NCBI GenBank assembly: GCA_050084515.1
Contig: CM114271.1
Coordinates: forward strand, 21,700,001 to 21,764,000
Length of the DNA stretch: 64,000 nucleotides
From: Blasia pusilla
Taxonomy: Eukaryota
Direction of reading: 5' to 3'
Positions 37,436-64,000 of this stretch are shown here, in pieces. The notes under the pieces are model-generated. The model saw nothing but the letters and a program-made list of their open reading frames with translations, searched no databases and had not been told where the DNA came from. The position numbers and the translations under genes were made by a program. Within the stretch, counting starts at the first letter, position 1; each line of letters opens with the position of its first letter.

Positions 37436-39798
37436 TGTGATACCCACAATTTTGTACTCTTGAAGAATATATCTTTTTATTCAACGAAGATCCTTGTATA
37501 TTATGATTTTGATTATGATTATTTATTATTATGAGGAAGAATGAGTGAATCACGAAGCTCCTGGGACAAGGCAGAGAGATGGAAGATCAAGGATTTGCCT
37601 TAGAGGAGAGGAAAACGCAATAACAAAGTCTCAAGACTCAGAACGAAGCTCAACGAAGATGTACGAAGCTCTGTCTATGAAGTGCTTCGCTACATAACGA
37701 AGTATAACGAAGAAAAGAAGAAAGAAGTACTTCGCTCTTGTACGAAGTACAAAGCACGAAGCACCGGAAATAAGAACGAAGCATGGAGTACTTCGTCCTC
37801 ATGAAGTCCAGCGAAGCGAAGCTAAGAAGGATTGTGATTTCAAGGGACACATGTTAGAACAGTTAGACTAGGAAAGGGCGCGACCCTTTGTATCAAATTG
37901 GTAGTTAAGACAATTTTGTACCGCGGATTCACAGGGATCATAGGAAAAGCTAAGAGAACCATAGATCTAGGTAGTTAGAAATAGTGAAGAGACACTAACT
38001 TCATCAAGAACGTTTTGAATCTTTGGATCACTTCCACTCCAGAAAATATTTAAGAAGCAAGGCAGAAGCCATAATCATCATTCTCTTACGAAGTCCTTAT
38101 GTTGTAGGAATGGTCTGAGCAAGAGAGTAGTACCCTCTCGAGCTTGTATACACTTTGAAGCTTTCTTGTTCTTGATGGAGTAGTAAAGCAATCATTCATT
38201 CATTCTGATGTGCGATGGTTATGTTTGAGTATTCTTTTTGGGTCTGCAGAGTGAAGAGTGAATCAGGCCAACCTTTCTCATCAATGAAATAATCAACATG
38301 AGTTGTAGGAAATCTGTTTGACAGAGAGTAACCTGCCGAGACGGATTAAGTTCCGAAAGTAGGAGAAGTCAGCTTTTATGTTGAGATCTTTGTGAGGTTT
38401 CTTGATGTCGAGAGGAAAATCTACCTGAACATGCTGTCAATTCCACTAGAGAGAATCGAGAAAAGATCCTTTGGTACCAAGAAAGATCAGAAGATAATGA
38501 TAAGACATTGAATATAACTCACACACATTTAAATACAACTATTACAACAGAATTGTAATTCCGAACTCTCTTTTCATCAAACAATCATCCTCTTGGGGAT
38601 TGAATTTATTAAAACGACTGTAAAATAAAAACTCTTGTACATTACATATAGCAAGAAACTTTTTTGGCACCGCAATCCCCATGTATATCTCTCCCTTTTC
38701 TTTGCTGAAAAGGGAGAGATATACATGGGGAATCCGGAAGTGGGGAAAGAAGCCTCGTCTCTTGGAAGACCCAACCAGCTAGTTCTTACTAAAGACCATA
38801 TGATATCTCTAGCTATTCCCCTCACACAATGGATGAAAGAAGATAACAACAAATTTGCTGCATTGGTGCTAGAAAAGATAGAACAATTAATTAGCCTTGT
38901 CAATAAACCGAATTAACGATTGCTCCCATGAACGTCAGTTGTACTTGGTGATGACCCGGTACTTCTGTTTATGGGAGGAAAACCTAGCAGGAAGATTAAG
39001 AGCACATGGCACACTTCTGTAGGCTTAGGAAGTAGAAACCTTTAATTTCCCTCCATGGACCCCTACCTTTTTGCGACCGTGGGTGCGGAAGCAAGTTCCC
39101 GGATCCCAGGAGGGGCTCATGGAAGGCTCCCGGCCCTCTTCGCGAGATCAGCGAGCCGATCGACGGAGTAAGCAACAAGAAGATCACCCGGCTTGGAGAC
39201 CTCCTGGGTTGTCTCCCGGTCTTTGTCTTCGCACGAAGCCCAAGAGCAAGAAGAGGGACAGGAACAAACTCTCCACTACGTCCCCTGCCAGTTTGCAGTC
39301 GGACGAAGAGTCAACCTGGGACCCCTTTGGGGAGTCTGGGGACGCAGGGCCGACCAAATCAACTAGAGCGGAGCCGCTTCCTCCTCCCTCCCGAGCCTCA
39401 AGCCCGGGACCCGGCAGTAGACCATTCCCCATGGCCAATACTAGGAAGACGCTGCTAAGGTACCCCACCTTTGCTGGGGGACAGCGAGATGATGTGGACA
39501 ACTTTGTGCTGGAATTTACCCATGTAGCCAAGGCAAATGGGGAGGAGGACTTGTTGCGAGTCTTTCCTGGCCTGCTCAAGAAGCGAGCAAGCCAGTGCTA
39601 CGAGGGTCTCGGAGCAAACGTCATGGAAACATGGAAAAGGGTATTGGAGTCCTTCCTACATGAGTTCCGCGACCTGGAGTTCGAGGACAGGCTTCTTACG
39701 AAGGTTCGCGACCTGAAACGAAAAAAGAAGGAAACTCTCCGGGAGTACACACAAAGGTTTCGCAGCCTGGTGAATAAACTGGAACACACCACTACCTC
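37436..39798 (+). mobile_element. LTR retrotransposon family B: 5' LTR, PBS and gag, truncated by the MULE-like element
   Basis: TGTGATACCC start; homologous to 8829-10855. ORF 39071-39907 contains the gag-like YPTFAGGQRDDVDNFVLEF...LKKRASQCY...ETLREYTQRFRSLVNKL; sequence switches to the DNA transposon at ~39799. Confidence 0.85.
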
Positions 39799-40316
39799 GC
39801 AATATGTGCTCCGTCCTAGGAGACACCATCATGTCCTGAGCCAGGTAGTAGGAATCCAACACGTCTTAGAGAAGAGAGGAAGCCTAAGACTTGTTAGACG
39901 AAACTAGGGGAAGGTGCAAAAGTGAAGAAGCCTGCCAAAATGCCTGTAAAGTTGGACTAAGAAGGAAAGAGTCCGATCACTCACGCAGCCAACCTGTCGG
40001 AATTTGACAGGTTTCCTGGAAGTGGTTAAAAAGATGGAGTGGTCAAAAAATTAAAAGTTGCAACCCGTGGCAATTCGACGGGTTGCAATATGAAGTGTCA
40101 GAGTACATAGACGATCACAATCGACAAGACCAAAAAATATATTCAACAAACTTTTACAAAAGCCATCATCGTTTGAAAAAATCTTGTCCTTTATTACATC
40201 CAAAGGAATCTCGGAATTGTACATTTGATCTATTCTATGAATTCTTATGCCTCATCATCAAATAAATCCCTACTCCAAAATGTTGTAGTAAAGCTGGGTC
40301 CTTGAGTTCTTTGAAC

Positions 40317-43300
40317 TCACTTGTCATCGTCCGAGAGCTCCTCCAGAATTATTGTCGGCCTTGCCTTCCTGATTTTTGGAATGGTGGGAAGTGACGATGG
40401 TGTCACTACCAATGGTGGGTCTGGAACCGGAGCTGTTGGCTTCGGAGGAAAGTTGTACGCCCCAACTAGCCTGTCGTAATCTGCCTTTGTTTCTTTGCAA
40501 AGGTCAAACAGTTCCTGCCTTTCCTCAAGGCAGAGAATGTTCCTACCACTCTGCCAAGCGCCTCTGATACTCACCCCTGAAAGGGCCACTAAGTCAAACA
40601 CCAAGTCACCCAACCTTAAGCAGAGCTCGATGAGCGTTTGCATCAGCGCCGACGACTTTTCCCTTCCTCCAAGTAAGGGGGTACCATTTTCCATGTAAAT
40701 TCCCGGGGGGGATTTGTATAAACTATCTAAGTTGTACCCATAAGAGCATGGATCCACTGGATCGAGGATCTGAAACACTTGGAAGTTGTGCTCGGGCCTT
40801 ACAAAATAGTAGACAAAAGGAGTGGTCCATCTGTAAAGAAGCACGTTGGAAAAATGTCAGCAACAAGAAAGAGCTAATTTGAGTATGCAACAACAAGAAA
40901 GGTATACTATCAAAATGGTAACACAATGTGCAACTCGTCCCCAAAGAACTTCGCTTAACCCCAGAGAACTTAGTTATAGTCCTAACATTGGAGCAACTGT
41001 CGGAGTCCGACGGGTTGTTTTACAAGTGTTAGTGATTATTTTTGCCATGAGCAACCCGTTGGAAGGCGACAGGTTGATGGCTTAGAGCAACCCATGGTTG
41101 GCTAAGAGCAACCTAACGTCGGTTCAGACGGGTTGCATCATTCTAGAAACACAAGGAAAAGCATAAGCACTTGCAACCCGTCAGGTTCCAACGGGTTGCA
41201 TTCACCCAATGGAGACTTGCGGTAAATTTGCAACTCGTCGTTTTTATACGGATTGCACCACCGAAGTCTCCAACTCAGACAATCGGACGGGTTGCATACA
41301 GAGATGAAACCCGTCGGAGCAAGACAATTTGGATATGGATTTAGAGCCCTTACCCGGATTTGACTCGTCGCGGATCCGAGTGGGTACTTGTTCTTGATGA
41401 CACACGATTGCGTCGTCCTCCACTTCAGCGACCTCTTGACGCACTGCAGGTTGAAAAGCGTGTCCTCACTCCCTCCAGTCAAAACCAAGAAACAGCCCCT
41501 ATCACAAAGATAAGCGTCTGCAAAGGAAAACAGGAGCGCGATCTGGTCATAAGAAAGAGGGACATTCCAGTCTGGGACACCGTCGGACGGATTCTCGTCC
41601 CACAAGCGCAACCCGGAGGGCAAATCAACGACGAGGAGATCCACCGCCACCTCCTTGACCTCCTCATGGACCGTCGAGGGAGCATGCATGTTTTGTTGAA
41701 GCTTCCGTCCCAGCGTTGTTAATTTGTCAATGGCGGGTGTCGACGCTTGGGAACTCAAACTTTTCAGCTCATCCAGAAGATTCGTGCAGTGAATAATGAC
41801 GCTTGTCTTGGTCGTTGTTTCTCTATGTCTTCCCAAGGATGATGGAGTGTATTCCACATCTTGGTCTGCTCCTTGGGACAAACTTGGCACTTCTCGCTTC
41901 TGCTTCTCCCCAGTCTGCGGTCGGCTTGTTGGGGTCTCTATTACCTCAGACTCTGGTGGAGTTTTTTTGGCAGAGGACCTGGTCCGACCCTCTCTCCCCG
42001 CTCGCCCGGATGATTCCGCCTCTCGCCTTGAATTCTCAGCCTTTTTTTGGGAAGACTGGGCCTCGGAATTCTTCGATCCCCTCGCCTTGGCTTTGAGACC
42101 CGCTGTAGATTTATCCTTGGCGGTGACAACCTTGGACACCAACTCCACTGTCTCGATGGCTTGCTCCTCCGCATCTCCTTCGAAAAAGTCTTCAGGCTGC
42201 ACGAAATTGGGGATGTCGTCCCTACCTACGGCCACTGCATCATAGAGCAGGCGTAGATTTTTCTCGGTTATGTCCTCAGGGTCGTTGAAGTCCAGCCAGA
42301 TCAGGCAATTCTCCACCTCGTTGTCGGACATGCTTTGAGCCATCTCCATGTCGTACATGGAAAATGTCTCTCCATCAGGCGGAGAAGCCCACAATTTGCA
42401 GGCTGCCGGTATTTTTTGCCACGTACTTGAATTCTTACAATGGACGAGGTACCTGAACACCATGCGTTGGGCAGCTCTTAGTCAAGATGCATCGGCCGCC
42501 TGCTCTTGAAGATATCGCTTTTTCTTTGCGAAATCCCTTTTCTTCACCTCTATTTCTTCATCAAGGTCTGCTTGAGGGAGGATGTGATCCTTGAACATCG
42601 TCTTGAAGCGTGGATTTTTTATGGGCTTGTCCCGCATGTCATCAAGGCAAAGTTCGAAATCTTTAGCACTCTCCAGGTTTTCTTCCTCCGGAACTGGGTC
42701 TATTTTTTTCAGCTCCGCTTGGAGACCCACAAGCATGGAATCCCCGAGAAGCCGCAACACGTCCCAAAATGACCATTCACAGAGCCTGTGGGAGATCATT
42801 GGATCAGAGACACCCGGAGGATGGTGTGCCGCCCTCTTTTGGGCCTATGTGCCCTCAAGACTAATTTTCATCAGTTGGATTCTCCTAAATTCCGAAATTC
42901 CAGACAAGGCAAATCGTTGGACGCGGTCGAGAGACACTTTCTCCCCAATCTGACCCTACGGATCTTCATCCCTCTTGCGCTGGCGCTTGATTATCGCCTT
43001 TAGCTCCTTGTAGAAATCGGGGCCAAGTTTGGGGTTGTGAATGGTGATGTAGCGCTGCATCTTGCTTGCAGTGTACTTCGTAGCTGCAAATACTGTAGCT
43101 TGGATGAACTTAGCACGCTCAGACAAAGATACTTTCTCCCTCCACTCCAGCTCCAATGAAGCGCTCTTCTTGGCGGCCTGTATCTTCGACCAGCAAAGGA
43201 TTATCACGGCTGCATCTTGGGAAATAAATGTATTTGCCCATGTCTTTTTTTTTATTTGAGCCCCCTTTGCCAGCATCTCATTTACAAGGGCGTCGCCCAA

Positions 43301-45308
43301 GAACCCCTTGTACTGTGTCGGGTGCATCGTTAGCACTTTCTTCACCCGATCGCAATCCTGGATCCAATGGTGGGTGACATTCCCCTCGGATACAATCATG
43401 CACATCCAAACTCAATATAAGAAATTTTGCAAGCTACATGGGTTCCTGCAACCCGTCGGACTTCGACAGGTCGTCATACCTCATGGTCGGAATGGTAGCT
43501 ACGAGCTAAATTTTGCAACCCATCGGAGTCTGACGGATTGCATTCAGATTTGTGATTGTCTAGTTTCAACCCGTCGGACTCCGACGGGTTGTCAAATAAT
43601 TTGTATTCAGAGAGTGGTCTCCACGAGAAAAGTGAACATATCAACCCGTCGGAGTTCGACAGGTTGCGCAATTTCATGTAAAGTTGCAATGTGACGCCAA
43701 AAATCAAGGTCCCCTACTCTAATCATCTTCCTATGCCGGCGAATGCAACGCGTCGGAGTCCGACGAGTTGCTTTCGCCAAAAAATCCTAAAAAGCGACAG
43801 TCGAGCAACTCGTCGGACTCCGACGAGTTGCTTTCGGCCAAAAACATCCTAAAAATAGCGGCCCGTCAGCAACTCGTCGGACTCTGACGAGTTGCTTTCG
43901 GCCAAAAACATCCTAAAAACAACAACCTGTCAAGCAACTCGTCGGACCCTGACGAGTTGCTTTCGGCCAAAAACATCCAAAAAACAGCGGCCAATCAAGC
44001 AACTCGTCGGACTTCGACGAGTTTTGTTACCACTAGTTAAACAACTCGTCGGAGTCCGACGGTTTGCACCAATCAAAATAAAAGAAAGAGGAAACTTACG
44101 TGTTCATGGCATGCATGGCCATCTCCACCGTCGCCATGTGATGAGGGTATGGATGTAGCACGACTTCCTTCACGCAAAAATGCGCCTCCAATGAGTTTTG
44201 GCGCTCCTCTGCAAACTGGGTCCACGCCATAAACCTATGGTTTCCATCCTAGATGAAGAAATACAGGTTCCGCATCCTGCTGAATTTCGTCCCCTCAATC
44301 GCCCTTCTGAATTTGTGATCTCTCATCCTCCAGAATGTGTCGAGCGCCTCCAAGTCCTCCTCTGTCACCAGCGCTTGGGTTCCATGTTCATCATAAGGCT
44401 GAACATAGAACGGAGGGAAGTTGTCGACGTAGGATGTTGTCGCTGCTGATTGTTTCAGCTTCGCAATATCCTCGTCAGACTAAATTTCGCGGACTTACTC
44501 AATTGTCCGCAATTGGCAAAGTGGAATTCTCGGGGCGTTCTGGCCCTCCATCAATGCCATCTGCTTTACCACCTGTCACAATGGGGACAAGGTCAATAAA
44601 CTACACTGAATTGCCAATGAATTGCAACATGGGCCTTCACATAACTCAAAGAACAAAGATCATATATTACCCGCTCGAAGATTGGGTCGATGTCTTGGCC
44701 CGCCAACTGCTTTGGGACATCAGTTGGCAAGTCCACTGGAAACTCGTTGATCCGATAGAGGTCAATTTCTTCTGCCGGGCTAAGAGACGAGGAAGACCGC
44801 TCTCCTGCTTCTTCGGAGATGTCCACCATCTCCTGCTGGCGGTCCTCATGACCTCATTGTCCGTCACTTGAACTTTGCCCATTTCCTCAGCCGATTTTAT
44901 ATTGATTGTGTCTCCGGACTTCATCAGAGACATTTCGTGCATCTCAACACTTTCGGTTGGACGGGCCAAGCTTTCTTCAATGGCAATCGCTTTTTCCCTT
45001 CGAGCTTTTGCCAATTCTCCTCTCCTCACCGACGCGTCTAGACGCTTCTTTTCACGCTTCTCCTCGACGATCCTTTTCTTCAAGGCCTGCGACGCCTCAG
45101 CCTCTGCGTTCTATTTTTTTCAATCGCCTCCTTAACACGTTCTGCAAGAAGCTCTTGCCTGTGCATCTCCGCTTCCCTTTCGCGCTCCTCAATCTCTTCC
45201 TGCCTTATCTCATTGGCCGAACGAGGCCCTGGAGATGGTGACGCAAGAATCCTGGACTTGGGAGTAAAGCTCCCAGCCTTGCTTGCTTGAGTTTTTTTTC
45301 CTCGTCAT
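40317..45308 (-). pseudogene. ParB-like/N4C-N6A DNA methyltransferase-like fusion gene, copy A; exons ~45308-44100, ~43397-41354, 40830-40317
   Basis: Coiled-coil N-terminus; VREI*SDEDIAKLKQS...PPFYV and YFFI*DGNHRFMAW (DGNHR at 44248-44234); VDLLVVDLPSGL (DLPS 41626-41615); REKSSALMQTLIELCLRLGDLVFDLVALSGVSIRGAWQSGRNILCLE. GTAAG donors at 44099 and 41353; first acceptor mutated; several stops and frameshifts. Confidence 0.8.
43744..44066. repeat. Tandem ~60-bp units, each containing a palindrome (intron 1 of the ParB-MTase gene)
   Basis: Unit agcaactcgtcggactccgacgagttgctttcggccaaaaacatcctaaaaa...; a perfect 29-bp palindrome (1-nt centre) at 43804-43832. Confidence 0.9.
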
Positions 45309-45528
45309 TGTTCCCGAAAATGCCACCTCCTCGATAACGAAATTACTTTCTGTGCAGGATGAGTCGCGTTGATGAGTCGCTCCGATGAGTCGCCTCAATG
45401 AGTTGCCTCGATGAGTCGCTCGAATCGTCTCGCGATGAGTGGTCGTGTAAAGCGCCCCTTGGTATCTGGTCCGCTAAAGAGCAATCAAGATCCCGAAACA
45501 AAAAACCTGAAATGAGCGAACGCTAGCC

Positions 45529-45536
45529 TATTTATA
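45529..45536 (-). promoter_or_regulatory. Candidate TATA box of the ParB-MTase gene
   Basis: TATAAATA on the minus strand ~220 bp upstream of the ATG; conserved in copy C at 59188-59195. Confidence 0.45.
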
Positions 45537-46628
45537 CTTTTCGAGCCGTTGGGCTCACCGTTGGGTCGCATCGTCATTTCGACGGCGACGTGTCGGCCGT
45601 TATGGAGGTCTGGACGTGAAAACCACCAACCCAACGGTCTTCGACGGGTTGGAGGCATCCGTCCTAGCCGAGATATCCTAGAAACCCGTCGGAGTCCGAC
45701 AGGTTGCCTGCCTCCACCGTCTTAGGGGAAGAACGCGAGGTACCCGCGCGACCCGTTGATGACCAACGGGTTGCACCCTTCCCTCGTCTTGGGATAACAA
45801 GGCGGGATACCTGCGCAACTTGTCGAAGGCCAAAAGGTTGCACGATTCCTTCATGTGAGCGTTACAAGGCGAGGCACTTGCGCAACCCGTCGGAGGCCGA
45901 CGGGTTGCACGCTTCCCTCATCTTGGGGTAATAGGCGGGGTACCTGCGCAACTTGTCGGAGGCCGACGGGTTGCACGCTTCCTTCATGTAAGCGTAACAA
46001 GGCAAGGTACTTGCGCAACCCTTCGGAGGCCGGCGGGTTGCACGCTTCCCTCATCTTGGGGTAATAGGCGAGGTACTGGGCAACTCGTCGGTTACAGACA
46101 CGTTGCACTTTTTTCTATCCCTCGGGCAACAATGTGACAATAGATAGTTCTGAGGCAACCTCTTGCAATCCGACGGGTCACAAGGTCTACCCTGAGTTGG
46201 ACAATCCCGTAACAATCCCCAGCTATTAGTTACCTTAGCAAATGCAAGGGATGTCTCGTGTTTGATGCTAGCAAAATCGTCTCAAAAGACCATTAGTCGG
46301 CATGAAGGGTGTACCAACCCAACGGACTCCAACGGCTTCCAATTTGCATTGGGACACGGAAACAAAAAATGGAATTGGGTGCTTTGCAACCCACGTCTCT
46401 GATTCCCAAATTCTGCAACCCATCGGACTCCGACAGGTTGCAACAAAATTGAATCCATCATGTCAAAAAATCTCACCTACCAAAATTCATCTTGTCAGTC
46501 AAATTCTGTCAAGAGAATCAGAGTCCCTATTCACTTTAAATTGAACATTCTCATTCTTATTCTCATTCCCATACCCATTCTTATCCTCATTCTTATTCTC
46601 TATCTCCTCCCGGTGGAATCTTCTCGGA

Positions 46629-49600
46629 ATGGATAATTATGTGAAGCTCACTTGTGGCAGTCATCTAGCGGCCCTTCCTCAATCAAAAATCGTTCGACCG
46701 CAAGCTCGTGAGTCTTTCATACCAATGGATGAAAATTTTCTCTCAGTTCGATTTCTTCTCCAAATTGGAACCATCTTTATATCCAAGGATGTTAGGATGG
46801 ACGGTATGGAGGACATAATAGGTGAGACAATCCAGCGAATGATTGCAGACCGTAAAGTATGGAATCTCCTACCTCTAGCAAATGATCAATACAGAGTTTA
46901 CGGCTTGCCTCTGAATTCCTCTGTTTCCCAAGTAGATGGTCGAGAATTTCCTAGTTCACCGAGCTCTACTTTGGCAACTCCTAGCTCAGTAGATCCGGCA
47001 TCGGCTCCAACTTCACACGTTCGTTACAATGGTGTACTTCCTGAAGAAATTCCCGATGTTGTCAACCTCAGTGGATCGGTCAGACACCAACCGGGCCCTC
47101 TGTCTGCCTACTCGTTCCTCTTGCGGATATCAGGCAATAGTTTGCTATCGCCTCTGGCCTTGAAAATGTTCAAGCACATTCTTGTCAATGAGCTGCGGCC
47201 CACGTACGATGGTAATTATATTTTTGGGTTGCCTCCACTTGCTGCTCCTGCTCAAAAGAAAGATGGAGGACGCTTGAAGGGTATGGACAGAAAGTCTGAT
47301 TGTCATCGATGGTGCAGGCTTCAACGGACTAGTGCTTCAATTTCAGATGGTCCTTGGATTTTCTCCCACCGCCAATTCGTTGGAGCCTTGGAGTGTAGAA
47401 GTCCAACATGCCCGTATCTAGAGCACAACGGACAAGTCAATACATTGCAATTCCCCCCCAAGAATGCAGAAACTCCATATGAGGTCGGTGCCACCATACC
47501 GCCGGGAGGTCATCGATGTCCTCATTGTCAAGCATCCCCTTTTTGCGAACTTTTTATGGTATTACTACTTGACACGAGAGATAACCAACGAGTAATTGGA
47601 GATGAACAGGATAGCCTGGATGTTCAAGTCGGGTTGGAGCGTGTCCTCCATACATATTCTTCATTATCCATGACTTGGGCTCCACGTCAAAGTACACAAG
47701 GCTGGCAATTCATGTTGGCTCCCACACTCATCCTGTGACCGATGCAATTCAGAGACACATCAAGGAGGATGTGGCAAAGAAAGTGGCCGAGATCTTGAGA
47801 AACTCTCCGGGTTCAAAGCCCGGAGTGATCAAGCTAACAACAGCATCACAAATTTGCAAACAATTGCTTGGAATCCTTGGATAGGGCGAGATCACGGCTG
47901 CTGAGGAGAAACAACCTTGGGAAAATCTCGCATTTCTCGCTGATCGTGAATGCTTCCGAATTTTTGCGTCAAATACGGGTACTCGATGGAAAGACGGCCA
48001 AAATGGATTTCATTGCCAGAATCAAGGCCAACTCCATATTTCCATTCATTTAGAGATGGCAATTCATGGGCTAGGGAGGCAAAGGATCCAGGGTCGATGT
48101 CTTCAAAATGTCAACGACAGGTCCGTCGAGTGGCCTCGATCTTATAGATCGAATGAGGGAAGGGGAAGATCTTTACGGTAGTTGGGTAAGCTTTGATATT
48201 TGCTACAGAGTGCTGAACGGATGGTTGAAAATGGGTGCTCATGTTTATGACCATGTGGAGAAGGGACTCAAAACTATATTTGTCTGTGAAGTAAAAGCAA
48301 AAGACATTGGCAGTTTGAAGATCTGTTGGTTACTCTTATTAGAGGTGGTGAAGGAAAACAAAAGGCCACCTCCGGAAATTTATGGGTTCATGGCGGACAA
48401 TGCACAACCTGGGTGGATTGCTATCAGGGAAGTGTTTTGGGGTGGGGAGGTTCAACCGGAGAGAGAAAGGTCGGATGCTTTCCATTGGCAACAATCTGTG
48501 ACCCGCTACACCAAATCTTGCATCAAGGAGAATAAGAGGAGGGAGCATGTCACTCTACTCCAACGCTGCAAGGACAACAAAACCTTGAAACAGGCCATGG
48601 AATGCCAAGAAGAAATTCATGGGTGGTGGAGGAAACATGCGATTGAGGGGAAGTACAAAGAGTTATGCTCTTGGTTGAGTTAGTGGACTGTACAAATGAG
48701 ACAATGGGGAAACTTCATGCGGGAGGTGAGTTCACTAATTTGTCTCGCTGAAAATTGTTTGAAGAGTTGCAGCTAAAGGTGAGAAGCGTGGGCACTATAG
48801 GGATTTCAAACCAAAGAAACCAAGCAATTTGTCGGATGCGACATGTTGCCTCCCTGAGTGTTCAACCCATCGCTTATCGACGTGTTTCCTGAGTGTGCAA
48901 AGAGTCGAAACCTGACGGGTTGCAAGTCGCACAGCCAAATTTACTTGCAACCCATCCGAATCATACGGGTTGACGGGTTGCCTGAGAGTGCAACTAGTCA
49001 GAAAAGGACAGGTTGCAAGTGGCATGGCCAAATTTACTTGCAACCCGTCAAAATTCGACGGGTTGCACTAGGTGGTTCATGGGTGTTGCAACACGTCGGA
49101 ACCAATAGGTTATAGAGTCATTCATGGGATACCTCCAACTTGCAACCCGTCACGTTTCGACATGTAGCTTTTTTTTTTGCTCATAGAGCTATTTTGGTTC
49201 CCTTATCACAGTGTCGTTGTTGCAGGGATTGAACATTTATGAAAATGCCTTCTGCCCCAACACAAGTGGAGCATAAAGTGTTCATTCCTCGTGGAGGTCA
49301 TCACAAGCATGCCAAAGAATTTCACTTGTGGAGTGTCACGACCCTCATAACCAAACAACACCAAATAGGCGCCAAGCGAAACATCAGAACTCAAGTGAAC
49401 TCACGCTGCGAGGTTTGCGCTTTGGAGAGGCGTTTGGAAAAGTCTCTTGGAAAAGTTTAAGAGACAAAACGTAGAACAGATCTAGAGTTGTGTGTTTCAT
49501 GCGTTAGTGGTCACAACCAGAAACCTAGACCAAACGCGAGCCAAGACTTGAGATGAGTTGAGTCTTGGGAGGTTGGTTGCCAAAGAGGTGAGAACCAGTT

Positions 49601-50957
49601 TGGAACACGACTAGCGTTTGGGAGAGTCTGACTGTGTTTAGGACCATAACTTTAAGCTTTGAGATGCATTCGGGACAAGTAAGAGCGCGTTGGAGAGATG
49701 ATCTTAAGACGCTTCCAACGCACTAAAGATCTCAGAAAATGCATAAGTATAGGCTCAGATATTGGCCGAAAACAATTGAGAGAGCAATCGGGTTGAGGGC
49801 CAATTGGAGAGGCCCAGATATTTTTCCCTAAATGTAGGAGGCCCTCATAGATCCCCAGAAGTACTAGTAAGGGAGTTCTCTCAGAGATGTCTCGGAACAC
49901 GAATCCCCACTTTGGGCGCCAAACGGCGTTTCAGAGACGGGATGGAACGGGAGTTTGGCGTTGGAACTCGAAACCCAAACCTGATCCAAGGGAGTGGACT
50001 TTGTACGCCACACTTGGATTCCAACCCGAGATTCACTTCGTGCGAGTCTTGGTGAGGAACTCATTGGATGTCCATCAGACAATTGGAACCGCTAGGCGCG
50101 AAACAGCGTTTCAAGTTCCTGAACCGACCAGAAAGTCTGTCCCAAGTCTTTCAAGATTTGTCCGTGTTGTAAACCGCGAAACTAGGAAGGTTGAGCTTGA
50201 TGAGAGTCAGAGACAAGAACTCAGAAAGTAATCCCGCTGATTGATCCAAGACCCGACTAACCAAAGTGTGTGTTTGGATGCAGATCACCGTTGAGAGCAT
50301 GACCTACTGAACGCACGCTTCCGCAACCAACAAGATTAACGTTCAAGGAGAGTAGGCGCACGACATGGAGGCATGCCAACAAGACCAGGCAAGAGCAATG
50401 CTACAGTCTGCAGCATCCCATATCTTCCTCACAAAAGGCATAACAAAAGGAAGGGGGCCTTTGATCTACGAGCTCTATGTCAGGGCGGCTGTGAGATCGG
50501 GTGATGAGAAACTCTATGTGGAAGCCTTCAATCGGTGCGTAGCAGGAACTCCCCTCGAGCAAGACGTACACATTGGTGGGGATATTTGTGGGCGCATTTC
50601 AAGACGTCACATACAGATGGTGGTAGAGCAGTCCGAGCGAGACTCGTGGAGACTATATAAGTATCTTGACTTCAGGCAGGTGAAGAGGCAACATCGAGGA
50701 ACGAATCCGATGATTGATTTGGATGAGGAAATTATGCCGCCTAGGTATTCGGGGACCCCGGATTGCTCCCAAATCCATAATGGAGTAACTTCTCCAAAAT
50801 CAGTGAATGTTTTATTTCAAAAGCCCTTGGTTGCTGGAAGTTCGCAACATCCGGTCGCTGGGGTGGTTCAACAATATGGGATTCCGGTCATGGAGGTGGA
50901 TTACAACCTGAAACGGTGGCATATATCTCGGAGCAACCCTGGACGTGGACCCACTTG
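46629..50957 (+). pseudogene. MULE-type DDE transposase, copy A (intron 48726-49225; solo LTR inserted; C-terminus truncated)
   Basis: Cys/His N-terminal domain (GALECRSPTCPY, CPHC, RLAIHVGSHTHPV); D1 in WVSFD; D2 in GFMADNA; DAFHW (the C/DxxH motif); WLS*W...QWG; after in-frame splicing PNTSGA*SVHSSW, with the expected catalytic E replaced by TAA at 49274-49276. Confidence 0.85.
49334..50365. repeat. Solo LTR, family C, inserted in the transposase exon
   Basis: TGTCACG...CGACA termini; perfect 5-bp TSD TGGAG (49329-49333 and 50366-50370); removing it restores RISLVEACQQDQAR. Confidence 0.93.
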
Positions 50958-52487
50958 GGGGGCTGGTATTCTGGCAGGAGAGAGGAAGAGAGGAGAGGAA
51001 GAGAGGAAGAGAGGAGAGTCTCTCTTCAAAAAGGAAGAAAGGAGAGGAAGAGAGGAAGAGAGGAAGAGAGGAGAGTTCTTGATGACCCACGATTGCGCCG
51101 TCCTCCACTTCAGCGACCTCTTGACGCACTGCAATTTGAAGAGCTCGTCCTCGCTCCCTCCAGTCAAAACTAAGAAACAGCCCATGTCACTGAGATAAGC
51201 GTCTGCAAAGGAAAATAGGAGCGCGATCTGGTCATAAGAAAGAGGGACATTCCAGTCCGGGACCCCGTCGGATGGATTCTCGTCCCACAAGCGCAACCCC
51301 GAGGGCAAATCAGCAACGAGGAGATCCACCGCCACCTCTTCGACCTCCCCATGGACCGTCCAGGGAGCATGCGGGTTTCGTTGAATTTCGTCCCAGCGTT
51401 GTCAATTTCTCAATGGCGGGTGTCGACGCTTGGGAACTGAAACTTTTTAGCTCATCCTGAAGATTCGTGCAGTGAAGGATAACGCTTGTCCGGGTCGTTG
51501 TTTCTCTATGTCTTCCCAAGGATGATGGAGTGTATTCCACATCCTGGTCTGCTCCTTGGGACAACCCTGACGCCTCTCGCTTCCGCTTCTCCCGAGTCTG
51601 CGTTCGGCTTGTTGGGATCTCTATTACCTCAGACTCTGGTGGAGTTTTCTTTGCGGAGGACTTCGTCCGACCCTCTCTCCCCGCTCGCCCGGACGATTCT
51701 GGCTCTCGCCTTGAATCTTCAGCCTCTCTTTGGGAAGACTCAGCCTCGGAATTCTTCGATCCCCTCGCCTTGGCTTTGAGACCCGTTGTAGATTTCTCCT
51801 TGGCGGTGACGACCTTGGACACCAACTCCGCTATCTCGAGGGCTTGCTCCTCCCATCTCTTTTGAGAAGTCTTCAGGCTGCACAAAATTGGGGATGTCGT
51901 CCCTACCTGCGGCCACTACATCATAGAGCAGGCATAGATCTTTCTCCGTTATATCCTCAGGGTCGTTGAAGTCCAGCCAAATCGGGCAATTCTCCACCTC
52001 CCAATCGGACATGCTTTGAGCCATCTCCATGTCGTACATGGAAAATGGCTCTCCATCAGGCGGAGAAGCCCACAATTTGCAGTCTGTCGATATTTTTTGC
52101 CATGTACCTACATTCTTACAATGGACGAGGTACCTAAACACCCTGCGTTGGGCAGCTCTTAGTTGAGATGCATCGGCTGCCTGCTCCTGAAGATCTCGCT
52201 TCTTCTTTGCGAAATCCCTTTTTTTCGCCTCTATTTCTTCGTCAAGGTCTGCCTGAGGGAGGATGCAATCCTTGAACATCGTCCTGAAACCAGGGTTTTT
52301 AATGGGCTTGTCCCGCATGTCATCAAGCCAAAGTTCAAAATCCTCAGCACTCTCCAGGTTTGCTTCCTCCGGAATTGGCTCTATTCTTTTCAACTCCGCT
52401 TGGAGACCCACGAGCATGGACTTCCTGAGAAGCCGCAACGCATCACAAAATGACCATTCACGGAGCCAGTGGGAGATCACTAGATGA
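50958..52487. mobile_element. Mutator-like element copy B: left terminus fused to an internal fragment of ParB-MTase exon 2
   Basis: GGGGGCTGGTATTCT plus GA-rich terminus (50958-51075), then 51076-52487 homologous to 41390-42806 and 55436-56836 (DLPS at 51311-51300). Confidence 0.8.
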
Positions 52488-53612
52488 GGGGGCTGGTATT
52501 CTAGCAAGAGAGAGTAAGAGAGGAGAGGAAGAGAGGAAGAGAGGAGAGTCTCTCTTAAAAAAAAGGGCCAAATCCGCCTCCTCTCTTCAAAACTTTTTGA
52601 CATATTTGAAATTTTTGTTTGCTTTCAAATTCATGAAATCTTTAGAAGAGAGTAGGTAGTGGTCCACATTCGGGCCTAAAGAAACCTCCTTTTTCCAGGG
52701 GGCGAAAAAAAAGTAGACATCATAAGACCACTACAAACATTTTTCCATCACTCTCCATGTGAGCCTAAGTTTCTTAACATTGCCTGTCTCGGTCTACAAT
52801 AAGCAGTGCCCATGGGTATTTTTGTTGCGGGACCACTCGGATGCGCATCGGTACGATGCCAACCTCTCTTTTTGCAGGGATTGTTGCCTGCATCATGGCC
52901 TCCCTTGAATTGCCTCATAACCCACTTTCTGTTGGTTATGAATTGTGTCTGCTCAAGACCAACTTTGTGAAATGTGAACACATGATACGATAATTGAACC
53001 AAAAGATTGTTAGCTGTCTAGAGTAAAGAGGAACTGATGTGCCTTCATTCAGATCCTAAATCTGAGAAACCGAGAAGCTGCACCCCTCCCAACCCGTCGA
53101 AATTTTATAGGTTGCAACTCTTGCAACCCGTCGGAATCAGATGGCTTGCACCCCTTGCAAGCAAGTTCACCATAACAAAGGAAAGATTTTGAGAAGTGAT
53201 TCCCTTCCACCCTGCACCCATGAAAATCCAACAGGTTGGGAATCCGAAATGGTAATCCGCAGGTAGTAGAAATCCTGCACATCTTAGACAAGAAAAGAAG
53301 CCTACAACTGGTTTGACGAATCTAGGGGAACGAGCCAAAAGTGAAGAAGCCGGCCACAATGCGTCAGAAGTTGGTCTCAGAGGGAAAGAGTCCGATCACT
53401 CAAGCAGCCAACCTGTCGGAATCCGACAACTTGCCTGGAAATGGTTAAAAAGTTGCAATGGTCAAAAAGTGAAAAGTTGCAACCCGTCGGAATCATACGG
53501 GTTGCAAAATTGTCATTCTGAGTAGCTAGAAGAACGCAATCCACAAGTCCAAAAAAAATATTCAGCAAACTTTTCCAAACACCATTATCGGTTGAAAAAA
53601 TCTCGTCCTTTA

Positions 53613-53945
53613 TTACATCCGAAGGAATCTCGGAAATTTATATTTGACGTAGTCTATGATTTCTTCAGCCTCGTCATCTACAAATCTACTCCTAATTCTC
53701 CAAGGTTCCTGTACAAAAGGAATGTCCTGGGATACAAATGGCTCCTCTAGCCGATTGTAGACTGGGATCGAAAATGTTGGCAAATTTGAGAGCCTTGGTC
53801 CCTCCCCCCCCTCCTCTAGGTACACCATAACGGTCCCATGTAACCTGATTTGAGTCCCACCGCCTTCCTCGGCAGTATATCTTGTACGCTTTGCAATGAG
53901 ACACCCATCCAGTATCAATATGTGCTCCGTCATTGGAAATACCAT
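53613..53945 (-). CDS. Small ORF (110 aa) of unknown function inside the transposon
   Basis: ATG-initiated open frame with protein-like composition; its 3' part is duplicated in degenerate form at ~54310-54400 and ~40190-40290. Confidence 0.3.
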   Translation of the reverse strand: MVFPMTEHILILDGCLIAKRTRYTAEEGGGTQIRLHGTVMVYLEEGGEGPRLSNLPTFSIPVYNRLEEPFVSQDIPFVQEPWRIRSRFVDDEAEEIIDYVKYKFPRFLRM

Positions 53946-54434
53946 GATGGCAATCCAAGAGGTAGTAGGAATCCAACACGTCTGAGAGAAGAGAAGAAGC
54001 CTACGCCTTGTTTGACGATACTAGGGGAAGGTGCCAAAGTGAAGAAGCCCGCCAAATTGCCTCTTAAGTTGGACCAATAGGGAAAGAGTCCGATCACTCA
54101 CGCAGCCAACTTGTCGGAATCCGACAGATTGCTTGGAAATGGTTAAAAAGATGCAGTGGTCAAAAAGTGAAAAGTTGCAAACCGTGGAAATCCGACGGGT
54201 TGCAAAATAGAAGTCCTCGGAGTACATAGACGATCACATTTGAAAAGACATAAAAGATATTCAGCAAACTTTTAGAAACACCACCATCGTTCAAAAAAAT
54301 CTTGTCCTTTATTACATCCGAAAGAAGCTCGGAACTGTACATTTCATCTATTCTATGAAATCTTTTGCCCTCGTCATCAAATAAATCCCTACTCCAAACG
54401 CTGCAGTCAAGCTGGGTCCTTGAGTTCTTTGAAC

Positions 54435-57400
54435 TCACTCGTCATCGTCCGAGAGCTCTTGCAAAATTATTGTCGGCCTTGCCCTCCCGATTTTCGGAAT
54501 CGTGGGAAGTGACGATGGTGTCACTACCAATGGTAGGTCTGGAACCGGAGCTCTCGGCTTCAGAGGAGAGTTATACGCCCCAACTAGCCTGTCGTAATCT
54601 GCCTTTGCCTCCTTGCAAAGGTCAAATAGTTCCTGCCTTCCCTCGAGGCAGAGAATGTTCCTGCCACTCTGCCAAACGCCTTTGATACTCGCCCCTGAAA
54701 GGCCCACTAAGTCGAACACCAAGTCACCCGGCCTTGAGCAGAGCTCGATGAGCGTTTGCATTAGGGTTGGCGATGTTTCCCTTCGTCCAAGTAGTGGGGT
54801 ACCGTCTTGCATGAAAATTTCCGGGGGGGAATTGTATAAACTATCTAAGTTGTACCCATCAGAGCATGGATCCACGGGATCCTGGATCTTAAACACCTGG
54901 AAGTTGTGCTCGGGCTGAACGAAGCAGTAATCATAGGAGTGGTCCATCTGTAAAGAAGCACGTTGGAAACAATGTCAGCAACTTGGCCACTGGTCTACTC
55001 TCAATATGGTGACATAATGTGCAACACGTCACCAAAGAACTTTGCTTAAGCCCAGAGAACTTCTTTATAATACTAACATTGGAGCAACCTGTCGGAGTCC
55101 GACCGGTTGTTTTTGTCCATGACCAAACCGTCGGAAGGCGACGGGTTTCTGTCTTAGAGTGGAGAAGAGGGAAAACGCATTACCACCGGAAGCACAGGGA
55201 AAAAGCATAAGCACCTGCAGGTGCTTATGCTTTTTCCCTGTGCTTCCGGAAAGGTGCAACCCGTCTGAAAGCGACGGGTTGCTCTCAGCCAAGCATGGGC
55301 TGCTCTAAGCCAGCAACCTATCGCCTTCCGACGGGTTGCTCACGGACAAAAACAACACGTCGGAGAAATACAATCTGGAGACAGGAATAGAGCCTTACCC
55401 GAATTTGACTCGTCACGGATCCGAGTGGGTACTCATTCTTGATGATCCACGATTGCGCCGTCCTCCACTTCAGTGACCTCTTGACGCACTCGAGGTTGAA
55501 AAGCTCGTCCTCGCTCCCTCCAATCAAAACTAAGAAGCAGCCCCTGTCACTCAGATAAGCGTCTGCAAAGGAAAACAGGAGCGCGATCTGGTCATAAGAA
55601 AGGGGAACATTCCAGTCTGGGACCCTGTCGGACGGATTCTTGTCCCATAATCGCAACCCCGAGGGCAAATCAGCGATCAAGAGATCCACCGCTACCTCTT
55701 CGACCACCCCATGGACTGTCCAGGGAGCATGCCCATTTCGTTGAAGCTTCCGTCCCAACGTTGTCAATTTGTCGATGGCGGGTGTCGACGATTGAGAACT
55801 GAAACTTTTCAGCTCATCCAGTAGATTCGTGAACTGAAGGATGACGCTTGTCCGGGTCGTTTTTTCTCTATGTCTTCCCAAGGATGATGGACTATATTCT
55901 CCTTGGGACAACCCTGGCGCCTCTCGCTTCCGCTTCTCCCGAGTCTGTGGTTGGCTTGTTGGAGTCTCTATAACCTCAGACTGTGGTGGGGTTTTTTTCG
56001 CAGAGGACCTCGTCCGACCCTCTCTCCCCGCTCGCCCGGACGATTCAGGCTCTGGCCTTGAATCTTCAGCCTCTCTTTGGGAAGACTCGGCCTCAGAATT
56101 CTTCCATCCCCTTGCCTTGCCTTTGAGACCCGCTGTAGATTTGTCTTTGGCTATGTGGACCTTGGAAGCCAACTTCGCTGTCTCGAGGGCTTGCTCTTCC
56201 GCATCTCCTCCGAAAAAATCTTCAGGCTGCACAAAATTGGGGATGTCGTCCCGTCCTGCGGCCACTGCATCATAAAGCACGCGTAGATCTTTCTCGGTAA
56301 TGTCCTCAAGGTCGTTGAAGTCTAGCCAAATCGGGCAATTCTCCACCTCCCAATCGGACATGCGCTCAGCCATCTCCGTGTCGTACATGGAGAATGTCTC
56401 TCCATCAGGCGGAGAAGCCCACAATTTGTAGGCTGCCAGTATTTTTCCCCGGGTACCTGCATTCTTACAAGGGACGAGGTACCTGAACACCATACGTTGG
56501 GCAGATCTTACTCGAACTGCATCGGCCGCCTGCTCCTGAAGATCTCGCTTCTTCTTTGCGAAATCCCTTTTTTTTCCCTCAATTTCTTCGTCAAGGTCTG
56601 CCTGAGGGAGGATGCAATCCTTCAACATCGTCTTGAAACCTGGGTTTTTGATGGGCTTGTCCCGGATGTTATCAAGCCAAAGTTCAAAATCTACAACACT
56701 CTCCAAGTTTGCTTCCTCCGGAAGTGGCCCTATTCTTTTCAGCTCCGCTTGGAGACCGTCGAGCATGGACTTCCCGATAAGCCGCAACGCGTCCCAGAAC
56801 AACCATTCGCGGAGCCAGTGGGAGATCACTGGATCAGAGACACCCGGAGGATGGTGTGCCGCCCTCTTTTGGGCCTCTGTGCCCTCGAGACTGATTTTCA
56901 TCAGTCGTATTCTCCTAAATTTTCTTATTCCAAACAAGGCAAATCGATGCACGCGATCGAGAGACACTTTCTCCCCAATCCGACCTTGCGGATCTTCATC
57001 CCTTTTCCGCTTGCGCTTGATTATCGCCTTTAGCACCTTGTAGAAATCCGAACCAAGTTCGGGGTTGAGAATGGCGATATAGCACTGCATCTTGCTTGCC
57101 GTGTACTTCGTAGCTGCAGATACTGCAGCTTGGATGAATTTTGCATGCTCAGACAGAGATACTTTCTCCCTCTGCTCCAGCTCCAATGCAGCGCTCTTCT
57201 TGGCGGCCTGTATCTTCGACCAGCAAAGGATTGTGACGGCTGCATCTTGGGAGATAAATTTATTTGCCAAAGTCTTCTTTTTGATTTGTGCACCCTTTTC
57301 CAGCATCTCATTTACAAGGGCGTCGCCCAAGAACCCCTTGTACTCTGCCGGGTGCGTCGTTAGCACTTTCTTTCCCCGATCGCAATTCTGGATCCAGTGG

Positions 57401-58932
57401 TGGGTGACATTCCCCTCCGATACAATCCTGCACATCCAAACTCAATATAAGAAAATTTGTAAGTTACATGGGTTCTGCAACCCGTCGGACTCTGATAGGT
57501 CGTCACAGCTCAAGGTTGGATTGTAGCAACGAGCTAAATTATGCAACCCATCGGAGTCCGACGGATTGCATTCAGATTTGTGATTGCCTGGTTTCAACCC
57601 GTCGGACTCCGACGGGTTGTTAGATAGTCCGTATCAAAAGTGAACATATCAACCCGTCAGAGTCCGACAGGTTGCGCAATTTCAATGAAAGTTGCAATTT
57701 GACGCCAAAAATGTAGCTCCCAACTTCCGAATACAATGTGTCGGACTCCGACGAGTTGCTTTCGGCCAAAGACATCAAAAAACCTCCAAAAATAGCTTCG
57801 AGTCAAGCAACCCGTCGGACTCCGATGAGTTGCTTTCTTCAAAAAACATCCAAAAAATGGGGCGAGTCGAGCAACTCGTCGGACTTCGACGAGTTGCTTT
57901 GGGCCAAAAACATCCTAAACCTGTGGTGAGTCGAACAACTCCTCGGACTCCGACGAGTTGCTTTCAGCCAAAAACATCCTAAACCATTGATCAATCGAGC
58001 AACTCGTCGGAGTTCGACGAGTTGCTTTGGGCCAAAAACATCCCAAAAATAGTGGCGACTCAAACAACTTGTCGGAGTCCGACGGTTTGCAGCAAGAAGA
58101 AACTTACGTGTTCATGGCATGCATGGCCATCTCCACCGTTGCAATCGGCAGAGTGGAATTCTCGGGGCGTTGTGGCCCTCCATCAGTGCCATCTGCTTTA
58201 CCACCTATCACAACGGGGACAAGATCAATAAGCTACAGTGAATTGCCAATGAATTGCAACATGGGCCTTCACATAATTCAAAAAACACATATCCTCTCTT
58301 ACCCGCTCGAAGATTGGGTCGGTGTCTTGGCCATCCAACTGCTCTGAGACAGCAGCTGGCAAGTCCACTGGAAACTCGTCGATGCGATAGAGGTCGATTT
58401 CTTCCGCCGGGCTTAGAGACGAGGATGACCGCTCTCCTGCTTCTTCAGCGATGTCCACCATCTCCACGCTGGCGGTCCTCATGACCTCATCGTCCGTGAT
58501 CTGAACTTTGGCCGTTTCCGCTATATTGATTGTGTCCCGGGACTTCATCGGGGACATTTCCCGCATCTCAACACTTTTGGTTGGACGGGCAGGGCTTTCT
58601 TCAATGGCTATTGCTTTTTCCCTCCGAGCTTTAGCCAATTCTGCTCTCCTCACCGACGCGTCCAAACGCTTCTTTTCTCGCTTTTCGTCGGCGACCCTTT
58701 TCTTCAAGGCCTGCGACGCCTCTGCCTCTACGTTCTATTTATCGAGCGCCTCCTGTACACGTTTTGCAAGAAGCTTCTCCTTGTGCATCTCCGCTTCCCT
58801 TTCTCGCTCCTCGATTTCTTGCTGCCTTATCTCATTGGCCGAACGAGGCCCTGGAGATGGTGACGCAGGAGTCCTCATGGACTTGGGAGTGAAGCTCCCA
58901 GACTTGTTTGCTTGAGATTTTTTCCTCGTCAT
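54435..58932 (-). pseudogene. ParB-like/N4C-N6A methyltransferase-like fusion gene, copy C; exons 58932-58108, 57427-55399, 54947-54435
   Basis: Canonical GT-AG junctions give MHAMNT|IVSEGNVTHHW and SQIR|MDHSY in frame; exons 2 and 3 are open (705-aa and 170-aa ORFs). VDLLIADLPSGL (DLPS 55671-55660); RETSPTLMQTLIELCSRPGDLVFDLVGLSGASIKGVWQSGRNILCLE. Exon 1 has stops and lacks the DGNHR segment (deletion at ~58140). Confidence 0.82.
57470..58092. repeat. Palindrome array in intron 1, copy C
   Basis: About ten copies of caac(c/t)cgtcgga-n-tccgacg(g/a)gttg at roughly 60-bp spacing. Confidence 0.9.
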
Positions 58933-62158: not shown

Positions 62159-62580
62159 AGGATGCAAAATGAGGTTTTAGACTGTACTTTCATTTTTCCA
62201 TAACCTTCACTTTGAGCTTGAACTTCATTCAGCCTAGGGCAAATGATAGATTTTTTCCAGACCTTGGATGGAAAAAGTGATTGGTTCCACACTTATGATT
62301 CCACTGATTTTTCAGTTTTCTAAATTTTGTGCAATTTGCAACTCGTCGGACTCAGAGGGGTTGCCAAAATGTGGAAGAGGAAAAAAAACTGTGGGAGTGC
62401 TTAAGAACTAAGCAGAAAAGTGCAAAAAAAATCACACAGAAAGTTTCCTCTCTTCAACCCAACGGAAACTCTCTTCAAATCACAGGAAACTCTCTTCAAA
62501 TCACAGGAAACTCTCTTTTGGTTGAAGGTAGTTTCCTCTCTCCTCTCTCCTCTCTTCCTCTCTTCCTCTCCTCTTACCCC

Positions 62581-63560: not shown

Positions 63561-64000
63561 TGGTGCAAATGGTGGATCCCTATAAAGCGCTAGGAAAGTC
63601 TCTCTATAATGTGCCTTCCTCCTTTGAGGATGACTTGTGTGAGCACCACAAGCATTACTTGGATAGATACTCTCTATACCTCATTTCATTGTGCGTACAT
63701 CCTCCACCACTACTCTCACCAACCCTCCTCTCAAATATTTGAAAGGATATTGTGATCATTTTCATGCCTCTCTTATGTGATTCACTTTCACTTTTGCTCT
63801 CGTGGAGCAAACTAGCTCCTCAACAATCAATAGTGTTGGATTCTCAACATCCACTTCTATGAGTACCATTAATATGATCGGCCCCCTTGTATGAGGAGAA
63901 GCCTAGATTGATGGTTCTGACTTTGACGTCAAAGGAGTCATAGTAATATGACGTAGATGGTTTATGGAGTAACGTTACTAGGATTATCTAACCCTATATT

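Follow-up and report, generated by a model that had tools for sequence, protein, structure and literature searches.

Transposon self-recognition and escape from silencing have been worked out experimentally in very few systems, foremost among them VANDAL/VANC. VANC binds a 9-bp non-palindromic motif that occurs in one orientation, often in tandem arrays, in VANDAL21's introns, in the DNA between its genes and in its terminal non-coding parts; the target motif differs between VANDAL families, and both binding and hypomethylation have been demonstrated in Arabidopsis (Hosaka et al. 2017, PMC5735166). Red-algal giant Plavaka elements carry tandem inverted-repeat arrays beside ParB-domain accessory genes (PAG3), and homologous accessory genes are present in Chondrus Mutator elements (10.1101/2025.02.11.637652). 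An Ectocarpus Sola1 element encodes, on the strand opposite its transposase, a ParB-like and N4C/N6A methyltransferase protein for which binding to, and modification of, the element encoding it has been proposed (PMC12477816), and Dam-type methylases fused to a ParB helix-turn-helix (HTH) occur in chlorophytes and chytrids (Iyer et al., PMC4738411). The ParB-like/methyltransferase accessory genes of giant algal transposons have been noticed recently and so far described, not tested. Here we analyse a window, meaning the whole stretch of 64,000 nucleotides from Blasia pusilla contig CM114271.1 (positions 21,700,001 to 21,764,000; window coordinates are used below), in which self-comparison reveals two adjacent copies of one ~14-kb element that are 80–91% identical. 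Copy A runs from 39800 to ~53900 and copy B from 53916 to at least 61380. The element has a transposase gene on the + strand that resembles those of Mutator-like elements (MULEs) and a divergent accessory gene on the − strand, and its non-coding DNA is studded with a 27-bp palindrome. We read these palindromes as the predicted cognate sites of an element-encoded dimeric DNA-binding protein that would mark or regulate the element's own non-coding DNA, and give this reading about an even chance of being right.

The locus is similar to VANDAL/VANC in that an apparently Mutator-like element is paired with an accessory gene, in that a family-specific motif is tandemly repeated in introns, intergenic and terminal non-coding DNA, and in that the motif is wholly different between related families (none of 80 related loci shares the window motif). 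It differs in having a 27-bp dyad in place of a 9-bp word and a methyltransferase-like accessory protein in place of one with VANC domains (no DUF1985 or DUF287 was found by Pfam in any copy A open reading frame, ORF), and in being known from sequence alone. With the algal PAG3 and Sola1 systems it shares the format of a giant DNA transposon with a prokaryotic-type accessory gene opposite the transposase and tandem inverted-repeat arrays adjoining; in the window the arrays occupy the accessory gene's promoter and its two introns, and they likewise lie beside the homologous exon in four related loci (L012, L026, L040 and L078). The algal elements, however, are EnSpm/Plavaka or Sola1 whereas the window element is MULE-like, and the likeness is one of described layout. 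Moreover, PAG3 combines ParB with a 2-oxoglutarate oxygenase, while the partner here is methyltransferase-like, with D-L-P-S instead of DPPY, and a ParB domain is not confirmed. Among plasmids, F sopC consists of tandem 43-bp units that each contain a short inverted repeat, RK2 KorB operators are dispersed at promoters, and ParB-type sites measure 13–16 bp. The window shares with these the direct repeats holding one palindrome each and the scattering of palindromic operator-like sites at the promoters of one mobile element. Unlike them, it has a 27-bp site with 10-bp half-sites 17 bp apart and no detected ParB HTH protein, and it is hard to see what a eukaryotic transposon residing in a chromosome would use partition for. 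The label parS-like, which an earlier sequence-only reading of this DNA had tentatively attached to the palindromes, is therefore not upheld, since no ParB family was detected and the 27-bp site exceeds the shorter parS. Literature searches found no description of the 27-bp motif or of palindrome arrays in bryophyte MULEs, and the Bostrychia preprint was the only work found to join ParB, methyltransferase and Mutator-like transposons (10.1101/2025.02.11.637652). The window arrays are a further case of a known but barely characterised phenomenon; what is new is an explicit dyad whose size and positions are conserved and whose sequence turns over across a MULE-like clade.

A scan of the window with GCAACCCGTCGGA-N-TCCGACGGGTTGC returned 34 matches when up to 3 mismatches were permitted, all of them confined to the element span, where 100 dinucleotide shuffles give an expectation of 0.00. 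When up to 6 mismatches over the 24 defined positions are allowed, 62 matches are found, against 0 in 50 block shuffles, and every one lies within 39990–62363, with none in 1–39989 and none in 62364–64000. The perfect 25-mer CAACCCGTCGGACTCCGACGGGTTG is located at 43567–43591, with a second perfect copy at 57595–57619, and a 29-bp perfect palindrome (AGCAAC..GTTGCT) spans 43804–43832. The complete unit is the 27-mer G-CAACCCGTCGGA-N-TCCGACGGGTTG-C, in which two 10-bp half-sites (GCAACCCGTC and its complement) flank a poorly conserved 7-bp centre. Scanned by itself at up to 1 mismatch, the half-site occurs 50 times forward and 46 times reverse, always inside 39800–62400, compared with a shuffle mean of 2.8 (20 shuffles), and for 27 of the 50 in forward orientation a reverse half-site follows at exactly +17, which defines a fixed dyad geometry. 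The exact 25-mer has no occurrence in 596 Gb of prokaryote contigs, nor in viral contigs. The window contains two element copies, so around half of the 62 sites are paralogues of the remainder.

Of the 24,201 bp of 39800–64000, 10,501 bp were classed as non-coding, and these contain every one of the 62 sites; further degenerate copies are visible by eye inside the introns. Copies A and B carry 10 and 10 sites in intron 1 of the accessory gene, 10 and 13 in the divergent promoter, 3 and 4 in intron 2, 2 and 2 in the left end segment, and 4 and 1 on the right-hand side; the 3 sites of the transposase intron of copy A belong to a region that is deleted from copy B. Tandem arrays, called by Tandem Repeats Finder, have a period of 64–65/129 bp in intron 1 (43745–44023 in copy A, where the array holds the CTC..GAG variant described below, and 57778–58084 in copy B), 67/133 bp in the promoter (45683–46091 and 59346–59940), 93 bp in the transposase intron (48879–49065) and 34 bp at 53079–53160. 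The sequence-only reading had pointed to the perfect copy at 43567–43591 and to the 29-bp variant, had placed the motif in both accessory introns, the divergent promoter, the transposase intron and the end regions with none in exons or outside the element, and had noted a semi-regular spacing of ~60 bp with repeated intervening sequence, and on each of these points the scan, the site counts and the array periods agree with it.

Much of the site multiplicity is tandem duplication, and most sites sit inside repeats with periods of 64–67, 93, 133 or 34 bp. This raises the alternative of neutral minisatellites, in which slippage and unequal exchange would have multiplied a functionless palindromic fragment in DNA that can vary freely; the differing site numbers of the two copies (10 in the promoter of A, 13 in that of B) speak for it. 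Against it stands the variety of contexts in which the unit is embedded. The two large arrays have only the palindrome in common, their spacers being unrelated, and the 32 sites of copy A resolve by their 20-nt flanks into 25 clusters with a median flank identity of 27.5%, the random level. The figure of 25 is inflated by register shifts inside the arrays, and a conservative count by region and repeat family gives at least 10 contexts with unrelated flanks. The palindrome is not the passenger of one longer repeat unit, and its half-site spacing is fixed.

Comparison with related elements bears on the same question. Metagenome contigs were scanned with the transposase-core alignment, 191 of the 330 pattern-matching stretches were confirmed by tblastn, and the best 80 of these 191 relatives, at 28–47% identity, were kept as loci. 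The window motif is in none of the 80, a single 7-mismatch match in L029 being the nearest approach, while recurrent palindromes of their own, nearly all 24–27 bp and often in tandem arrays, are present in 16 of the 80 loci and in 0 of 80 shuffles. L001 carries three copies of the 26-bp TATTGCTAGCGCCGGCGCTAGCAATA. TTCAACTTTYR-N4-YRAAAGTTGAA is found both in 51-bp tandem arrays and dispersed in L012/13, L026/27/59, L040 and L078, TGCATTACCT-N6-AGGTAATGCA in L042/44, and GGGAGTCAAAC-N5-GTTTGACTCCC together with TCGGGACTCCC-N4-GGGAGTCCCGA in L037 and L047/48/50. Two copies of a 24-mer lie just 3′ of the transposase ORF in L020, and two copies of a 26-mer in L072.

In several of these loci the palindromes lie in places equivalent to those in the window. 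In L001, the closest relative (47% identity), protein homology ends at L001 position 1081, corresponding to window position 48728, with a GT donor in both, and the three palindromes begin 21 bp into the intron that is equivalent to the window intron with sites at 48898–49065. In L078, L012, L026 and L040 the array adjoins a stop-ridden exon, ..VDLVLVDVPS..PWN..FLSDRGVVIIMHADDP.., that is homologous to the window sequence ..VDLLIADLPSG..DWN..YLSDRG.. (L078 1094–1357, L012 972–1262, L026 ~2900–3200 and L040 ~1700–2000), and L026 has an additional weak match to the motif-I exon. The D/N-[LV]-P-S motif is kept between the window (41400–41600 and 55560–55760, − strand) and these four metagenome lineages. 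A tblastn search of the 80 loci with the accessory protein gave nothing at 1e-3, the conserved exon appearing only under relaxed settings; judging from these matches, the accessory gene, its D/N-[LV]-P-S motif and the adjoining array are conserved together. In the array-unit consensus of the four lineages the arms are 115/132 (87%) identical, the centre 14/24 (58%) and the spacers 106/150 (71%). Distant relatives thus appear to carry different palindromes independently, of the same size and in equivalent places, with arms better conserved than spacers across lineages, and neither feature is anticipated by neutral amplification, an explanation that we consider improbable.

Small mobile modules akin to miniature inverted-repeat transposable elements were also considered as the nature of the palindromes. 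This candidate was rejected, the tandem periods being regular, duplicated target sites being absent and positions being conserved in relatives.

Which element protein would bind is a separate matter, and the transposase is an obvious candidate. Its core ORF (48075–48680) has MULE/ZSWIM RNaseH-like clusters as nearest protein language-model Atlas clusters, with a score of 0.95, and the ten best family-bearing Atlas matches belong to one common family or clan; the D..D..DxxH pattern is visible in the alignment. Pfam gave no MULE match for the window ORFs or for 11 relatives. A HMMER scan yielded 149 relatives, 7 of them at E≤1e-30, and among ten that were looked up the only named ones are liverwort proteins at 45–47% identity, which points to a eukaryotic host with spliceosomal introns, perhaps a bryophyte. 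In all the relatives that have palindromes of their own, no protein is better conserved than the transposase, and its N-terminal region is rich in cysteine and histidine. Precedents exist for such an arrangement, as En/Spm TnpA binds inverted pairs of a 12-bp motif. In Muta1, subterminal repeats raise transposase binding and excision with their number and a 10-bp terminal motif works as a palindrome (PMC5499845), and the AtMu1c transposase alone binds its terminal inverted repeats (TIRs) and causes their hypomethylation (10.64898/2026.08.24.746577). The window palindromes resemble the repeats of these three elements in being short, family-specific and present in many copies, and some of those repeats are likewise palindromic or come as inverted pairs; an element protein binds those repeats, and how many of them there are makes a difference.

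One alternative is accordingly that the palindromes are transposase-binding sites for transposition, used in end recognition or pairing, with the internal arrays as by-products, for example of abortive gap repair or self-insertion. Two sites do lie within ~200–290 bp of the left boundary of A/B homology, and the palindromes of L047 and L037 are located in repeated end segments. However, unlike the repeats of Muta1, AtMu1 and En/Spm, which are placed in the terminal few hundred base pairs, ~26 of the 32 copy A sites are interior ones, located in the introns or the promoter and away from either end. No TIR beyond the palindromes themselves was found between the left end of copy A and every candidate right end. 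Distant relatives retain arrays at these positions, within one specific intron and next to the accessory gene, which is unexpected of repair debris. We regard the transposition-site alternative as rather unlikely.

The accessory protein is the other candidate. Its last exon weakly matches Pfam N6_N4_Mtase at E 1.2e-3 (19.3 bits, where the cut-off is 26.7), PHROG DNA methyltransferase families at E 2.6e-4 and 1.4e-3, and M.RsrI at E 0.036, and Atlas places the protein near MT-A70 clusters at 0.80 only. At the motif IV position amino-methyltransferases carry (D/N/S)PP(Y/F/W); with D-L-P-S there instead, the methyltransferase-like domain may be catalytically altered or may be a DNA-binding pseudo-enzyme. 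The designation ParB stems only from the motif DGNHR at 44234–44248, which we take to be ParB/Srx-like. Searches for homologues of the accessory protein found none among proteins of similar length or shorter ones, and a PDB search with the 707-aa accessory ORF returned nothing meaningful. Pfam on 119 ORFs of L059 and L047 gave no ParB or methyltransferase match, an uninformative result as Pfam barely detects the window's own gene. Since accessory exon and array are conserved together, presence or absence in the relatives does not discriminate which of the two proteins binds. Analogy with VANC and the algal ParB-type genes, together with the joint conservation of array and accessory exon, somewhat favours the accessory protein over the transposase as candidate binder.

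The palindromes might also act through structure, as RNA hairpins in introns and untranslated regions (with roles in splicing, stability or small-RNA production) or as DNA cruciforms. Each copy can form a hairpin of 11–13 bp with −12.7 to −16.1 kcal/mol as DNA and z-scores of −5.1 to −7.0 in 5 of 5 tested, but this is trivially true of palindromes, and three of the five site clusters are intronic. Stems of 11–13 bp are short as Dicer substrates, no Rfam family was matched, and sites are found in the genes of both strands and in the end segments, with the shared divergent promoter among the densest clusters. An RNA hairpin would favour one mismatch type; with both introns of the minus-strand gene pooled, G:T and A:C mismatches number 12 and 10 in copy A and 12 and 11 in copy B, so that there is no strand-specific wobble signal and a one-strand hairpin is disfavoured. 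The RNA-hairpin alternative raised by the sequence-only reading thus gains no specific support, and we consider a structural role of any kind highly improbable.

Covariation of the arms is minimal as well. Among the 13 arm pairs an excess of double changes is seen only at pair 5–21 (CCC..GGG versus CTC..GAG; 11 observed, 4.2 expected). Fully complementary CTC..GAG instances number 8, of which 7 are units of one array (43806, 43870, 43935 and 44000 in copy A; 57872, 57936 and 58000 in copy B) and the eighth lies at 59614; T at position 5 without a change in its partner occurs in nine instances. The other 12 pairs show mostly one-sided changes, as at pair 6–20, where 7 sites are changed on the left only, 15 on the right only and 4 on both sides in compensation (3.9 expected). 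The compensatory change that the sequence-only reading had seen between the two arm variants is thus real as a variant, but it amounts to about one or two events, goes back to roughly one ancestral unit of an array and is specific to an array. Both variants occur in the same element and are array-specific, so they do not serve as markers of protein subfamilies.

The palindromes also bear the marks of decay. C>T or G>A changes make up 119 of the 212 departures from the consensus, 66 of them at the four CpGs, which fits deamination of methylated cytosines in dead copies. The observed/expected ratio of CpG is 0.67 in 1–39799 and 0.79–0.89 in the two copies, which together with the C>T-dominated decay suggests cytosine methylation in the host. 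The centre of the palindrome was considered as a GANTC site, the target of CcrM/HinfI-type adenine methylases. This was rejected as a general feature, GANTC being kept in 27 of the 62 sites, with the promoter array reading GGAGGCC, and being absent on inspection from the palindromes of L001, L012/L026/L040 and L042/L044. The core GGA(G/C)TCC of the window palindrome centre also forms arms in the L037/L047 lineage (GGGAGTC.. and GGGACTCCC; L047 692–718, 890–916 and ~1100).

Several observations weigh against a cognate site for an element-encoded protein. Both copies are decayed, with in-frame stops and deletions, so that their sequence is partly neutral wreckage. That exons are free of sites would follow whatever the explanation, since coding sequence leaves arrays no room to expand and exons could not tolerate them regardless. 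Palindromes are 565/646 (87.5%) identical between A and B, barely over the 1448/1718 (84.3%) of other non-coding DNA, and this small difference, like the exon absence, would equally suit neutral minisatellites. The best-kept motif positions are A/T, a pattern that C>T decay alone would produce. The covariation is weak, being about one or two events while one-sided changes dominate elsewhere. Recurrent palindromes are present in only 16 of the 80 related loci, and that comparison has shuffles as its only control, with many loci being short and several representing the same contig from different samples. On the protein side, all methyltransferase matches of the accessory gene are below curated cut-offs, and no ParB family was found with Pfam, PHROGs or NCBIfam, including searches with exon pieces and with the broken exon read through with X, nor among 141 copy A ORFs with Pfam at E≤0.05.

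Nevertheless, the reading of the palindromes as cognate sites draws together the enrichment, the confinement to non-coding DNA, the strict dyad, the many unrelated flanks, and the turnover of sequence with size and position kept in relatives. The proposal of the sequence-only reading that they are sites for a dimeric element-encoded protein gives the best fit to the strict dyad, the unrelated flanks, the same-size palindromes of relatives and the better conservation of arms than spacers, with transposase and accessory protein both as candidate binders. Protein binding, the identity of the binder and an effect on silencing are what we infer from this pattern. In such a mechanism, sites multiplied, largely by tandem duplication, across the shared promoter, three introns and the end segments would let many protein dimers cover the non-coding DNA of the element that encodes them. 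This would most probably serve self-recognition for regulation, which could keep both genes active despite host silencing and/or guide the methyltransferase-like accessory protein to the element, and sites near the ends might also assist the transposase in locating it. In its 27-bp dyad, whose half-sites are defined, the locus offers an address code that is explicit and open to test, and comparison with relatives suggests that this code turns over from lineage to lineage but retains its length and its places, in a specific transposase intron and next to the accessory gene. If this holds, the phenomenon would reach a further transposon superfamily and probably also land-plant relatives.

A bolder version can be drawn, which we put forward with considerable doubt. 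A MULE-like clade, probably of bryophytes, might have captured a ParB-like/methyltransferase-like protein of prokaryote or phage type for which arrays of 26–27-bp palindromes serve as loading platform in the manner of sopC/parS. From these palindromes it would spread over the non-coding DNA and mark it epigenetically, for example by N6-methyladenine or N4-methylcytosine or by occluding the 5-methylcytosine machinery, providing a self-addressed anti-silencing system whose code turns over while its geometry is kept.

Limits of exons and introns were drawn from ORF ends and from GT..AG sites read in the sequence, the splice sites being predicted from it only. Copy A begins with the left end segment, here called S (39800–40279), which has two palindromes (39990–40014 and 40061–40085) and lies just 3′ of the accessory gene. 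That gene, on the − strand, comprises a last exon at 40320–40830, with a putative S-adenosylmethionine-binding, motif I-like amino-methyltransferase region; intron 2 at 40831–41353 (donor GTAAGG, acceptor ..TTTACAG), with sites at 40993, 41052 and 41174 at up to 6 mismatches and several more degenerate ones; a large middle exon at 41354–43411, free of palindromes and ending in the block VDL[LV][IV][AV]DLPSG...DWN...YLSDRG with its motif IV-like D-L-P-S; intron 1 at ~43412–44099, approximate in this broken copy, where the perfect palindrome at 43567–43591 is among the 10 sites; and 5′ exons at 44100–45304, within which the DGNHR motif is found. The divergent promoter between the accessory and transposase genes extends over 45627–46440 with 10 sites and a tandem array whose centre is GGAGGCC. 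On the + strand, the 5′ part of the transposase gene (46629–48726) encodes a zinc-finger N-terminal region and a DDE core (D..D..DxxH) and has no palindromes, and the intron that follows (48727–49225; GTGAGT...TTGCAG) contains sites 48898, 48948 and 49041, degenerate copies and the 93-bp repeat. The right-hand region of copy A, 53090–53504, holds sites 53090, 53124, 53409 and 53480, the last two inside a repeated S segment. In-frame TAG stops interrupt the accessory gene at 44249–44251 and the transposase at 48681–48683.

Copy B is without the stretch that matches 44024–44509 of copy A and without most of the transposase (47303–50745 of copy A). Counterparts of the copy A sites are located in its S segment (54107 and 54178), intron 2 (55085–55338, 4 sites), intron 1 (57478–58089, 10 sites) and promoter (59347–60244, 13 sites), and an isolated site at 62339–62363 lies past the point where copy B ceases to match copy A. 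The ~0.45-kb S segment recurs in direct orientation at 53236–53702 and 53916–54405, so that three palindrome-bearing S segments bracket copy A, ~13.4 kb apart; the elements may carry terminal direct repeats, or may insert beside one another. In L047, direct repeats of 0.77 kb (386–1149 and 14208–14958; 78% identical) enclose the transposase at a distance of 13.8 kb from each other, and no second element follows the right-hand repeat; the repeated segments of L037 are at 7199–7725 and 12612–13127.

Other repeats were noted in and around the two copies. Downstream of the copy A transposase gene, 51075–52488 is a 1.4-kb piece of the large accessory exon (90% identical to 41390–42807) that sits between two copies of a 75-bp GA-rich repeat (50958–51032 and 52488–52562), an insertion that looks like the product of ectopic repair or conversion. 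In the 5′ region of the accessory gene, copy A has a 13-bp tandem repeat at 45358–45423 (GATGAGTCGCCTC, 5.2 copies), and the equivalent place in copy B, 59013–59094, has a different 24-bp repeat of ~3 copies. The remainder of the window to the left, 1–39800, is a mosaic of other repeats, including a 1.6-kb repeat common to 9275–10853 and 37809–39387 (86% identical) and a retrotransposon gag (Pfam PF03732, 39029–39907) directly left of copy A.

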